Shown here: piece by piece, positions 1,634 to 5,369 of the stretch
Position numbering within the stretch: the first letter of the stretch is position 1
Layout of the letters: every line of letters begins with the position of its first letter
Virus record (IMG/VR): IMGVR_UViG_2711768070_000016
From: a virus
Lineage: Duplodnaviria > Heunggongvirae > Uroviricota > Caudoviricetes
DNA length: 5,369 bases
Direction: 5' to 3' (one strand)
Made by a program: the position numbers and the translations under genes
Notes under the pieces: model-generated
What the model saw: the letters and a program-made list of their open reading frames with translations, nothing else
What the model was told of the DNA's origin: nothing
Database searches by the model: none

Positions 1634-1786
1634 ATGGAGAAAGAAATAAGTAAGATTTTGGTAAGGATGCCGCAGTCGTTAAAGGATGCTATAGGTAGCA
1701 GGGCAAAGGAAGAGTGCAGGTCGTTTAACTCAGAGGTTATCAAGCGCCTGATAGACAGCTTGAAGAGAGAGGGGGTAATGGTATGA
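1634..1786 (+). CDS. arc: Arc-like ribbon-helix-helix repressor (50 aa)
   Basis: [50 protein letters not shown] resembles P22 Arc (..NGRSVNSEIYQRVMESFKKEGRIGA) in length and motif. Strong RBS GGAGG sits 5 nt upstream of ATG 1634; the ORF-track start at 1598 is a TTG and looks like an over-extension. Confidence 0.7.
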   Translation: MEKEISKILVRMPQSLKDAIGSRAKEECRSFNSEVIKRLIDSLKREGVMV

Positions 1787-1986
1787 GTAAAGAATGTTGT
1801 TTCTGCGGCATTAGCGAATCAGACGCTGATCAAACATACATTTACTCTAAAGAAACAGGTCGGATGCTGTGTAGTGACTGCGTGTTGGACATCATAAGAT
1901 ACAAGCATCTTGGATGTTCTGCCAGCATTAGCAATATAGGTGAAGTATATGAAGGGAAAGATATAACTGATAGAGCAGAAAGTTGA
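1783..1986 (+). CDS. Small standalone ClpX-type C4 zinc-binding-domain (ZBD)-like protein (67 aa)
   Basis: CCFCG..(21 aa)..[11 protein letters not shown] aligns by eye to the ClpX N-terminal ZBD (CSFCGKS...ICDECVDLCNDIIRE): Cys5/6-x-Cys8 and Cys30-x2-Cys33. Start ATG 1783 overlaps the arc-like stop (ATGA); its stop TGA 1984-1986 lies upstream of ant. Confidence 0.6.
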
Positions 1987-2951: not shown

Positions 2952-2969
2952 CAGATTACCAACGAAATG

Positions 2970-2992
2970 ACCCAGCCTCGGCTGGGTTTTTT
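2970..2992 (+). terminator. Intrinsic terminator-like hairpin after ant (stem ACCCAGC/GCTGGGT, loop CTCG, then T-run)
   Basis: Read directly: stem 2970-2976 / 2981-2987, T-run 2987-2992. It is immediately followed by the K RBS AGGAG 2996-3000 and ATG 3006. Confidence 0.55.
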
Positions 2993-3008
2993 ATCAGGAG
3001 TTCTCATG
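2970..3008. repeat. Right boundary repeat (hairpin + T6 + AT + AGGAGT + nn + TCATG), ending in the K start codon
   Basis: Partner of 687-725; see the alignment described there. Confidence 0.7.
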
Positions 3009-3743
3009 CTCTATAGCAATATATTGGCACATGCCCGGCGGTGTGCGCCTGCGGAGTCGTGCGGCTTCGTGGTGAGAACGCCGGAGGGGGAGCGGTATAT
3101 CCCTTGTGTGAATATTTCCGCAGAGCCGGAGGCGTATTTTCGTATTGCGCCGGAAGACTGGCTGCGGGCAGAGATGCAGGGGGAGATTGTGGCGCTGGTC
3201 CACAGTCATCCCGGTGGTCTGCCCTGGCTGAGCGAGGCGGACCGGCGGCTGCAGATAAAGAGTGCCCTGCCCTGGTGGCTGGTCTGCCGGGGTGAAATTC
3301 ACCGGTTCCGCTGTGTGCCGCACCTGACCGGACGGCGCTTTGCGCACGGGGTGACGGACTGTTACACGCTGTTCCGGGATGCCTACCATCTGGCGGGAAT
3401 TGATATGCCGGATTTTCATCGCGGGGATGACTGGTGGCGCAACGGTCAGAACCTTTACCTGGACAATATGGCGGTCACCGGCTTTTACCGGGTGCCCCTG
3501 TCCTCTGCACAGGCGGGCGATATTCTGCTGTGCTGCTTTGGTGCTTCGGTACCGAACCATGCCGCCATATACTGCGGCAACGGTGAGCTGCTTCACCATC
3601 TGCCTGAACAACTGAGTAAACGGGAGAGGTATTCTGAAAAATGGCAACGACGAACGCATTCTGTCTGGCGTCACCGCCACTGGCACGCATCTGCCTTCAC
3701 GGGGATTTACAACGATTTGGCCGCCGCCTCAGCCTGTACGTGA
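3006..3743 (+). CDS. K: Tail assembly protein K (lambda gpK family; JAMM/MPN plus NlpC/P60 domains)
   Basis: ..HARRCAPAESCGFVV.. N-terminus, JAMM motif HSHPGGLPWLSEAD (H-x-H-x7-S-x2-D) and NlpC/P60-type Cys (GVTDCYTLF) and His (NHAAIYCG). Start at ATG 3006 with RBS AGGAG; the ORF-track start 2967 lies inside the terminator hairpin. Confidence 0.88.
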   Translation: MLYSNILAHARRCAPAESCGFVVRTPEGERYIPCVNISAEPEAYFRIAPEDWLRAEMQGEIVALVHSHPGGLPWLSEADRRLQIKSALPWWLVCRGEIHRFRCVPHLTGRRFAHGVTDCYTLFRDAYHLAGIDMPDFHRGDDWWRNGQNLYLDNMAVTGFYRVPLSSAQAGDILLCCFGASVPNHAAIYCGNGELLHHLPEQLSKRERYSEKWQRRTHSVWRHRHWHASAFTGIYNDLAAASACT

Positions 3744-4321
3744 ACACGGCAGCGGAAGCCATTCGCGCCCTGTCGATGCAGATGCCGGGCTTTCGCCGTC
3801 AGATGAACGAAGGGTGGTACCAGATACGTATTGCCGGTGAGGACACGGCACCGGAGGCGGTGTACGCCCGTCTTCACGAACAGCTGGGTGAGGGAACGGT
3901 CATCCACATTGTGCCGCGACTGGCCGGGGCCGGAAAGGGTGGACTGCAGATTGTGCTGGGGGCGGCAGCCATCGTGGGCTCTTTCTTCACTGCCGGAGGC
4001 TCGATGGCGTTATGGGGTACAGCCCTGAGTGCCGGTGGTTTTTCTGCCACCACGATGCTGTTTTCACTGGGTGCCAGTATGATTCTGGGCGGTGTGGCCC
4101 AGATGCTGGCCCCGAAGGCAAAAACACCGGATTACCGCGCAACGGATAACGGCAGACAGAACACGTATTTTTCGTCACTGGACAACATGATTGCCCAGGG
4201 TAACCCGATGCCGGTGCCTTACGGGGAAATGCTGGTTGGTTCACGACGGATATCCCAGGACATCAGCACCCGTGATGAAGGCGGGGGCGGAAAGGTCGTG
4301 GTTATCGGGCGGCAGGGGTAA
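3641..4321 (+). CDS. I: Tail assembly protein I (lambda gpI family)
   Basis: MATTNAFCLASPPLARICLHGDLQRFGRR...QIVLGAAAIVGSFFTAG...NTYFSSLDNMIAQGN matches lambda gpI as I remember it. It overlaps the 3' end of K by 103 nt in another frame. Stop TAA 4319-4321. Confidence 0.9.
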   Translation: MATTNAFCLASPPLARICLHGDLQRFGRRLSLYVNTAAEAIRALSMQMPGFRRQMNEGWYQIRIAGEDTAPEAVYARLHEQLGEGTVIHIVPRLAGAGKGGLQIVLGAAAIVGSFFTAGGSMALWGTALSAGGFSATTMLFSLGASMILGGVAQMLAPKAKTPDYRATDNGRQNTYFSSLDNMIAQGNPMPVPYGEMLVGSRRISQDISTRDEGGGGKVVVIGRQG

Positions 4322-4561: not shown

Positions 4562-5369
4562 ATGGGCAAAGGTGGCGGCAGGGCGCACACACCGCGCGAG
4601 GCGAAGGGCAATCTCAAATCCACGCAGATGATGAGTGTGATTGATGCGATTGGTGAGGGACCGATAGAAGGCCCGGTGAAAGGCCTGCAGAGTATCCTGG
4701 TGAACAAAACCCCGCTGACGGACACGGACGGTAATCCCGTGATACACGGTGTGACCGCGGTCTGGCGTGCCGGGGAGCAGGAGCAGACACCACCGGAAGG
4801 CTTTGAGTCCTCCGGAGCTGAAACCGGACTGGGCGTGGAAGTGACGAAGGCAAAGCCGGTGACGCGCACCATTACGTCCGCGAACATTGACCGCCTGCGG
4901 GTTACCTTCGGGGTGCAGTCACTGGTGGAGACCACCTCAAAGGGTGACCGTAACCCGACGTCTGTCCGCCTGCTGATTCAGCTTGAGCGTGGTGGTAAAT
5001 GGATGACGGAAAAGGATGTCACCATTAACGGCAAGACCACCTCACAGTACCTGGCGTCGGTGATTCTGGATAATCTGCCTCCCCGTCCTTTTAACATCCG
5101 GATGGTCCGGGAGACAGCGGACAGCACCACGGACCAGTTGCAGAATAAGACGCTCTGGTCGTCATACACCGAAATCATCGATGTGAAACAGTGCTACCCG
5201 AACACGGCGATTGTGGGGCTGCAGGTGGATGCGGAGCAGTTTGGCGGTCAGCAGATGACGGTGAACTACCATATCCGCGGTCGCATAATTCAGGTACCGT
5301 CAAACTATGACCCGGAAAAACGCACTTACAGCGGTATCTGGGACGGCAGCCTGAAGCCGGCATACAGCA
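4562..5369 (+). CDS. J: Host specificity / central tail fibre protein J (lambda gpJ family); 3' end lies outside the window
   Basis: ATG 4562 preceded by GGGTGAG. Hand translation MGKGGGRAHTPREAKGNLKSTQMMSVIDAIGEGPIEGPV... matches the lambda J N-terminus (MGKGSSKGHTPREAKDNLKSTQLLSVIDAISEGPIEGPV). The frame is open to the window end, which is why it is absent from the ORF track. Confidence 0.92.
   Translation, partial: MGKGGGRAHTPREAKGNLKSTQMMSVIDAIGEGPIEGPVKGLQSILVNKTPLTDTDGNPVIHGVTAVWRAGEQEQTPPEGFESSGAETGLGVEVTKAKPVTRTITSANIDRLRVTFGVQSLVETTSKGDRNPTSVRLLIQLERGGKWMTEKDVTINGKTTSQYLASVILDNLPPRPFNIRMVRETADSTTDQLQNKTLWSSYTEIIDVKQCYPNTAIVGLQVDAEQFGGQQMTVNYHIRGRIIQVPSNYDPEKRTYSGIWDGSLKPAYS

Follow-up and report, generated by a model that had tools for sequence, protein, structure and literature searches.

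A small gene at the arc-sar junction of an immI-type phage module and its probable, distant relationship to the ClpX zinc-binding domain

Introduction

In the immI region of phage P22, which is made up of mnt, the Pmnt/Pant promoters, arc, sar and ant, the Mnt repressor shuts off Pant in lysogens, whereas Arc represses it later in infection (P22 annotation; PMC2629481). Here, we analyze a 5,369-nucleotide stretch of DNA from a tailed virus of the class Caudoviricetes (IMG/VR record IMGVR_UViG_2711768070_000016; hereafter, the window), in which all five of these elements are found in the same order and orientation, with sar and the start of ant being near-identical to those of P22. Unlike P22, however, the window contains a ClpP-like gene behind mnt and a 204-nt gene between arc and sar. 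The latter, ORF67 (positions 1783-1986, + strand, with the TGA stop at 1984-1986), is a small, predicted zinc-finger gene of 67 codons and is the subject of this report. The site of the module is also different, namely, between the lambda-type tail genes L and K rather than between genes 16 and 9, as in a P22-like phage.

The second point of reference is the zinc-binding domain (ZBD) of the unfoldase ClpX, which forms a dimer needed for degradation of lambda O and binds lambda O, SspB and RssB through a hydrophobic pocket (F16, I46) (PMC7804408). ORF67 shares with this domain (PF06689, PROSITE ClpX-type ZB, PDB 1OVX) 4 cysteines arranged in 2 knuckles, the C-x-F-C-G motif, a hydrophobic-C-x-x-C-V/I signature at the start of the helix, and a predicted beta-hairpin followed by a helix. 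In ClpX, however, the domain is attached to an AAA+ ATPase, which is not the case for ORF67; the spacer between the knuckles is 3 residues longer in ORF67, and its helix is shorter, without the third Cys-containing turn (DLCNDII vs LDII). Closer in organization are the standalone phage proteins with a ClpX-type zinc-binding (ZB) domain, namely gp06 of Pantoea phage vB_PagM_AAM22 and P0021-P0023 (PHROG families 5259, 20296 and 12435). Like ORF67, these proteins are small, have the C-x2-C-x21-C-x2-C spacing, start with MS.(K/E)C.FCGI and lack the AAA+ module. Unlike ORF67, they pass the PF06689 threshold, their genes lie in the neighborhood of head-morphogenesis genes and not in an immunity operon, and their tails are unrelated to that of ORF67.

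The reading that we favor, which is quite possible although short of probable, is that ORF67 is a swappable cassette of the Pant operon, encoding a free mimic of the ClpX N-terminal domain that would bias proteolysis by ClpXP. The parts of this reading differ in strength and are considered separately below, together with the alternatives.

ORF67 occupies a cassette slot between arc and sar

The ATG of ORF67 (1783-1785) overlaps the TGA of arc (1784-1786) in an ATGA sequence, and a G-rich, Shine-Dalgarno-like run is located 7 nt 5' of this ATG, inside the 3' end of arc (GGGGGT at 1771-1776, + strand, as read from the sequence, with the GGGGG run at 1771-1775); this run is kept in the Salmonella loci described below. 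At the other end, the ORF67 stop codon falls within the base or stem of the sar terminator (or target) hairpin (1983-2018; folding z = -3.3), and from position 1979 onward, the window is nearly identical to P22 through sar and into the start of ant. In the window, 262 nt, 204 of them belonging to ORF67, lie between the arc stop and the ant start, whereas in P22, where the stop codon of arc overlaps the sar 3' end, there is only the 68-70-nt sar region. Given that P22 lacks the 204-nt ORF while its sar and the start of its ant are near-identical to those described here, ORF67 represents, compared with P22, additional sequence inserted between arc and sar. We also note that one Logan contig encodes a 112-aa in-frame fusion of an Arc allele and ORF67 (P0001), which apparently arose from a frameshift within the terminal GA/G run of arc and may be either a real variant or an assembly error.

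Three distinct ORF bodies were found in this slot: ORF67, a Salmonella ORF of 68 codons (ORF68) and an unrelated ORF of 57 codons (phrog_17642) in strain NMBU_W05E18. In each case, the start codon overlaps the arc stop (ATGA or GTGA), and all three share the TGA located within the conserved TGAAGCCCC flank (slot ORFs at 2594-2767 in locus L004, 5001-5207 in L009 and 4001-4207 in L010). The start and stop positions are common to the three, and the arc-sar junction behaves as a cassette slot.

Homologs of ORF67 are scarce beyond its immediate relatives. A word-indexed search of 5.8 billion proteins recovered only near-identical copies, and an exhaustive HMMER search of 1.84 billion representatives yielded a single true distant relative, P0014 (68 aa), to which a profile search added its sister, P0019. 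Both are from P22-like prophages of Salmonella and are 33-36% identical to ORF67; their helix is longer by a 2-residue insertion, their tail is unrelated to that of ORF67, and a ClpP-like gene accompanied them in every locus examined. Nevertheless, they are of comparable length and occupy the same slot in the order arc-ORF-sar-ant, with an ATG or GTG start overlapping the arc stop, an end at the TGA in TGAAGCCCC, and the same positions of the Cys, Phe and Gly residues. The initial annotation of the window, made from the sequence without database searches, had pointed out a 67-aa ORF with a CCFCG...CSDC motif, an ATGA overlap with arc and a position at which P22 has no gene, and had raised the question of whether the arc-ORF-ant order extends to related prophages. 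The description is accurate in these respects, and the order is indeed conserved in the Salmonella P22-like prophages.

In its immediate form, the gene is widespread. The exact ORF67 protein is encoded on more than 1000 contigs from E. coli and a few Salmonella serovars, the members of its cluster all being named 'hypothetical protein', and of 5426 complete E. coli genomes, 373 contain the corresponding DNA. A tblastn search of 50,697 phage records found ORF67 only in CUS-3, and 2 scans of species-representative genomes detected no copy, indicating that this is a strain-variable prophage gene rather than a species-level one. Across 40 IMG/VR loci, which include both P22-like (tailspike) and lambda-like (L-K) phage contexts, the ORF67 protein is 99-100% identical, and the arc, mnt and ant alleles with which it is combined range from 61% to 100%, 35% to 100% and 34% to 96% identity, respectively. 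ORF67 is thus a common but overlooked gene, missing from both the RefSeq annotation of E. coli and the CUS-3 record.

Probable relation to the ClpX zinc-binding domain

The protein has 2 predicted parts. Codons 1-43 (1783-1911, + strand) are predicted to form a zinc-binding beta-hairpin and helix, and codons 44-67 (1912-1983, + strand), a disordered, faster-evolving tail. In the AF2 model, the pLDDT is approximately 81 for residues 1-40 and below 50 for residues 46-67, with the beta-hairpin at 19-22/27-30 and the helix at 31-42; a single-sequence AF2 model reached a pLDDT of 56, and Foldseek searches with that model were uninformative. Over its full length, ORF67 matches phrog_7150, a phage family of unknown function (E 3.4e-50; residues 1-67 aligned to all 67 profile positions). 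The exhaustive HMMER search also recovered a dozen long proteins with TPR repeats, at E-values down to 2e-20, which were rejected as spurious; the matches come from the tail (window positions 1912-1983) and represent weak similarities summed over the repeats.

The cysteines of ORF67 follow the pattern C5/C6-x-C8 ... C30-x2-C33. Residues C6, F7, C8, G9, C30 and C33 are invariant, the 4 cysteines across 19 sequences, so that the cysteines considered diagnostic in the initial annotation (C6, C8, C30 and C33) are indeed retained in the distant relatives. C5 aligns with the first zinc ligand of ClpX. In 2 rare alleles, P0031 and P0039, this residue is replaced by Tyr, leaving C6-x-C8 as the first knuckle. 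Judging from the alignment, either C5 or C6 may be the first ligand, and the C-x-C reading of this knuckle stands beside the C-x2-C one.

The initial annotation held that the motif and its flanking residues closely resemble the ClpX ZBD. This turned out to be an overstatement, and a number of direct comparisons weigh against the assignment. The gathering threshold of PF06689 (zf-C4_ClpX) is 27 bits, with E. coli ClpX and phage gp06, used as positive controls, scoring 77 and 37.9 bits, respectively, whereas ORF67 produced no match to this profile at E<=1 and, hence, falls outside of the family as delimited by Pfam. Searches of PDB sequences with phmmer and with the family profile returned RING fingers at insignificant E-values and no ClpX. 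When a hidden Markov model (HMM) was built from 5 canonical ClpX ZBDs (each scoring 73-79 bits against PF06689), ORF67 scored 0.3 bits, a value reached by 26% of shuffled sequences in which the cysteines were kept. The spacer between the knuckles is 21 residues in ORF67, as in the phage ZB proteins, compared to 18 in ClpX, and of the ligand-binding residues of the ClpX ZBD, only F16, which aligns with the invariant F7 of ORF67, is seen to be kept. In addition, BLASTP against residues 1-102 of E. coli ClpX aligned only 11 residues, the NCBIfam and PADLOC scans gave no useful match, and the best matches in fold searches were RING, PHD and FYVE fingers, with ClpX being absent.

The connection to ClpX emerges through phage intermediates. 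A weak tblastn match led to vB_PagM_AAM22 gp06 (QDH45581.1), a standalone protein of 59 aa, which, together with its 3 relatives (P0021-P0023), passes PF06689 (28-39 bits for the family). ORF67 and gp06 share the C-x2-C-x21-C-x2-C spacing and are 43% identical over 35 residues. In profile-profile comparisons with hhalign, the immI family, comprising ORF67 and its Salmonella homologs, matched the gp06 family with a probability of 96% (E 3.9e-9), and the gp06 family, in turn, matched the ClpX ZBDs with a probability of 97.5%; the direct comparison of the immI family with the ClpX ZBDs reached 82% (E 1.1e-5) over 29 columns. ORF67 scored 21.6 bits against the HMM of the gp06 family, and none of 2000 shuffled sequences with the 4 cysteines held fixed attained this score. 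The PHROG families trace the same path: phrog_5259 is matched by ORF67 (E 6.7e-5), by the E. coli ClpX ZBD (E 4.4e-7) and by gp06 (E 1.3e-8), the last of which also matches phrog_7150 (E 7.3e-5). For the Salmonella homologs, zf-C4_ClpX is the sole Pfam match, albeit below the threshold (13.2 and 10.2 bits), and P0019 carries the UniRef name 'ClpX-type ZB domain-containing protein'. Finally, the ClpX signature residues, C-x-F-C-G and hydrophobic-C-x-x-C-V/I, are kept in ORF67. Collectively, the sequence comparisons suggest that the ORF67 domain is probably a divergent member of the ClpX-type ZB superfamily, one that is reached only through phage intermediates. The assignment to the ClpX ZBD made in the initial annotation is partly supported, by way of the phage ZB proteins, but not by comparison with canonical ClpX. 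Standalone phage ClpX-type ZB proteins are already present in the databases, all of them uncharacterized, and ORF67 is a new divergent member in a new location.

The strongest competing explanation is that ORF67 is a generic small zinc finger with a target unrelated to ClpX, such as Ant, Arc, a repressor or nucleic acid, or with a role in superinfection exclusion or anti-defense, in which case the link to ClpX would be limited to a shared treble-clef fold and ancient ancestry. The direct searches, which do not single out ClpX and favor RING, PHD and FYVE structures, and the score against the canonical ClpX HMM, which is no better than that of Cys-only controls, are in line with this possibility. 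So are the presence of the unrelated 57-aa cassette in the same slot, which suggests a general cargo site rather than a pathway related to ClpX, and a dN/dS near 1 (see below), which is typical of conflict genes. On the other hand, the likeness of ORF67 to the Pfam-positive phage ZB proteins extends well past the cysteine pattern, as is evident from the hhalign result and the fixed-Cys controls, and includes the signature residues of the ZBD, whereas scans against Pfam, NCBIfam and PADLOC, the last of which gave no match, revealed no other functional family. On balance, we regard a generic finger as a possible, if somewhat doubtful, explanation.

ORF67 as a gene

Several observations indicate that the ORF67 frame is maintained as a coding sequence. 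The frame stays open in only 0.4% of 20,000 shuffles of the same composition, with any + frame being open in 1.1%, and it is the sole open frame of the 6 in all 3 diverged versions. The frame has remained open even though the E. coli and Salmonella types have diverged to saturation at synonymous sites (pS 0.77, pN 0.49) and differ by indels. Substitutions among 14 E. coli-type variants affect 4 of the 43 N-terminal positions and 7 of the 24 tail positions. Two minus-strand ORFs overlapping this region (1819-2097 and 1842-1994) were considered and rejected, because stop codons close them in the Salmonella versions.

Other results argue in the opposite direction. Between 2 Salmonella alleles, dN/dS is approximately 1.2 (2.5 synonymous and 14.5 nonsynonymous changes, too few to be decisive), compared to 0.17, 0.09 and 0.3 for arc, mnt and the ClpP-like gene, respectively, which implies that ORF67 is not under strong purifying selection over short times. 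In approximately 300 of the 373 complete E. coli genomes containing this DNA, mostly those of the O157:H7 type, the ORF carries a +1 frameshift after codon 7, and ORF67 is not called by PGAP in RefSeq E. coli. The frameshift consists of an extra T in the TGTTGTTT run (2501-2705 in L005, and L044-L054, all O157:H7-type prophages) and largely reflects a single clonal event in which arc is truncated as well; in L005, arc is cut to 36 aa and ant is intact. Weighing both sets of observations, we conclude that ORF67 is very probably a real, fast-evolving gene.

Even so, its significance might lie in the act of translation rather than in the product. Under this scenario, ribosomes would run from the arc stop to a stop codon in the base of the sar-target hairpin, as in P22, where arc itself ends at that place, thereby tuning sar pairing and ant expression. 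The architecture of the slot is compatible with such a role: the start and the stop lie in conserved flanks, 3 different ORF bodies share the arc-stop overlap and the TGA in the TGAAGCCCC flank, the stop of ORF67 is in the stem of a stable hairpin much as the P22 arc stop overlaps the sar 3' end, and the short-term dN/dS is near 1. However, the invariance of the Cys ligands, F7 and G9 across homologs with 33-36% identity, the lower variability of the domain part than of the tail, and the significant match to a protein family would be unexpected for a mere spacer, making this explanation improbable.

An equally improbable alternative is that ORF67 is a nonfunctional or decaying ORF, left over from recombination at the arc-ant junction. 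The lack of PGAP annotation, the frameshifted E. coli copies and the dN/dS of the Salmonella alleles could all be taken in this sense, as could the CUS-3 record, where the region is labeled 'boundary sequence' although it encodes the identical protein, and the third-position GC content (GC3), which at 0.34 is below that of arc (0.59) and ant (0.46). Decay is difficult to reconcile, however, with a frame that remains open across saturated divergence and indels, with every other frame closed and the chance expectation being 0.4%. Moreover, the frameshifted copies are essentially one clonal group with a broken arc, whereas the exact protein recurs on more than 1000 contigs.

A possible role in ClpXP-dependent proteolysis

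In the reading that we favor, the Pant operon (arc-ORF67-sar/ant) of an immI-type 'ant moron' would carry ORF67, a genuine small gene, as a swappable cassette. By analogy with the P22 paradigm, ORF67 would share its transcript with arc and ant, and its translation would be coupled to termination at the arc stop. As Pant of P22 is repressed by Mnt and then by Arc, ORF67 is expected to be made only briefly and together with Ant, in the interval during which repression by both Mnt and Arc is absent, that is, early after infection or superinfection, or upon derepression. The product would consist of a 4-Cys zinc-binding treble-clef domain of approximately 43 residues, as predicted, followed by a disordered tail of approximately 24 residues. 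AAA+ sequences with the ClpP-docking loops are absent, the protein ending at 67 aa and the next gene being ant.

Given that the ClpX ZBD dimerizes and binds its ligands through a pocket around F16, a free ZBD-like protein could compete with it or pair with it. Accordingly conceived, ORF67 would compete for ZBD ligands, namely the tails of adaptors (SspB, RssB) or substrates that depend on the N-terminal domain in the manner of lambda O; alternatively, it would heterodimerize with the ClpX ZBD. Either route would transiently bias ClpXP proteolysis in favor of the phage while Ant is being made. Such a decoy activity, already raised in the initial annotation, taken alone ranks first among the functions considered, but as a suggestion from distant homology, it is doubtful. 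A more elaborate version, in which ORF67 titrates ClpX adaptors or substrates, or poisons ZBD dimers, and so shields Ant, or some other protein of the phage, while the choice between lysis and lysogeny or the outcome of superinfection is decided, with the arc-sar junction serving as a dedicated slot where small effector ORFs are swapped by recombination in the flanks, is unlikely.

The weakest of the alternatives is that ORF67 acts with, or regulates, the ClpP-like peptidase, the two forming a phage mini Clp system: although both genes are of Clp-related ancestry and occur together in the window and in 6 of the 6 Salmonella loci examined, only 10 of the 29 intact E. coli-type loci include the ClpP-like gene, CUS-3 carries ORF67 alone and NMBU_W05E18 the ClpP-like gene alone, the N-terminal 35-40 residues of ClpP have no counterpart in the ClpP-like protein, and the ZBD makes no contact with ClpP in ClpXP, docking being mediated by the AAA+ module, so that such a partnership is very improbable. 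The pairing of the two proteins entertained in the initial annotation is further weakened by their location in divergent operons, which in the P22 paradigm are oppositely regulated, mnt being on in lysogens, with Pant then off (PMC2629481).

Our literature search retrieved no paper on a ZBD gene in immI and none on phage-encoded mimics of the ClpX N-terminal domain. Should ORF67 bind ClpX ligands, it would represent a new type of viral anti-proteolysis factor and provide a compact tool against degradation that depends on the N-terminal domain. ClpXP sets the stability of many phage and host regulators, its targets including lambda O, MuA, the Mu repressor and, via RssB, RpoS. Whatever its function, ORF67 extends the gene list of a regulatory region that is among the best studied in phages.

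Layout of the module and its surroundings

The window is filled by a lambda-type block of tail genes, recognized by matches to the Pfam families Phage_tail_L, Prok-JAB/NlpC_P60 and Lambda_tail_I: L (40-678), K (3006-3743) and I (3641-4321), with J starting at position 4562. Between L and K is inserted a module of low GC content (0.44, compared to 0.59 in the flanks), which corresponds to an immI-type 'ant moron' as the term is used in PMC2629481, with divergent mnt and arc-ant operons and a sar antisense RNA across the ribosome-binding site of ant.

On the + strand, a Pant-like promoter was identified at 1569-1597 by a consensus scan (TTGACT-17-TATCTT with a TG extension), at a position matching that of the annotated Pant of P22; to judge from its sequence and position, it would drive arc, ORF67 and ant. 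The arc gene (1634-1786, + strand; 50 aa) was assigned by a Pfam Arc match (E 4.4e-12) and by the PGAP annotation of identical copies. The sar RNA is encoded on the opposite strand at 1981-2048 (Rfam RF00262, full length, 95.6 bits, E 2.6e-20), and ant (2049-2951, + strand; 300 aa) encodes an antirepressor with P22_AR_N (E 7.7e-45) and P22_AR_C (E 3.5e-25) domains. Transcribed divergently from these genes, the mnt-like gene (1271-1519, - strand) encodes a ribbon-helix-helix (RHH) repressor with matches to the Pfam Arc and FitA-like RHH families, and its Salmonella homologs also match Repressor_Mnt. It is coupled through a TAATG overlap to the gene for the ClpP-like peptidase (735-1271, - strand; 178 aa; Pfam CLP_protease, E 2.2e-11).

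The module is bounded by terminator hairpins on the + strand, at 687-704 on the left and at 2969-2988 on the right, the latter being related in sequence to the former. These hairpins are parts of imperfect direct repeats (687-725 and 2969-3008), in which the hairpin is followed by TTTTTTAT(A/C)AGGAGT..TCATG, so that each repeat corresponds to the L-K intergenic terminator, a ribosome-binding site and a start codon. The repetition of L-K intergenic sequence at the flanks implies that the region upstream of K was either duplicated by the insertion or the site of recombination.

The ClpP-like protein (735-1271) aligns with ClpP at the Ser and His of the catalytic triad and is missing the first 35-40 residues of ClpP. 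In profile searches, it came closest to ClpP-related head-maturation proteases, in each case with a score below the cut-off. P22 lacks this protein, which is an unusual cargo for an immunity module and whose E. coli and Salmonella versions are 97% identical. Antisense to the 3' part of its gene is an 85-aa ORF (723-980, + strand), which matches phrog_7758 (E 1e-61) and no Pfam family; it is probably a shadow ORF of the kind that gene callers sometimes pick.

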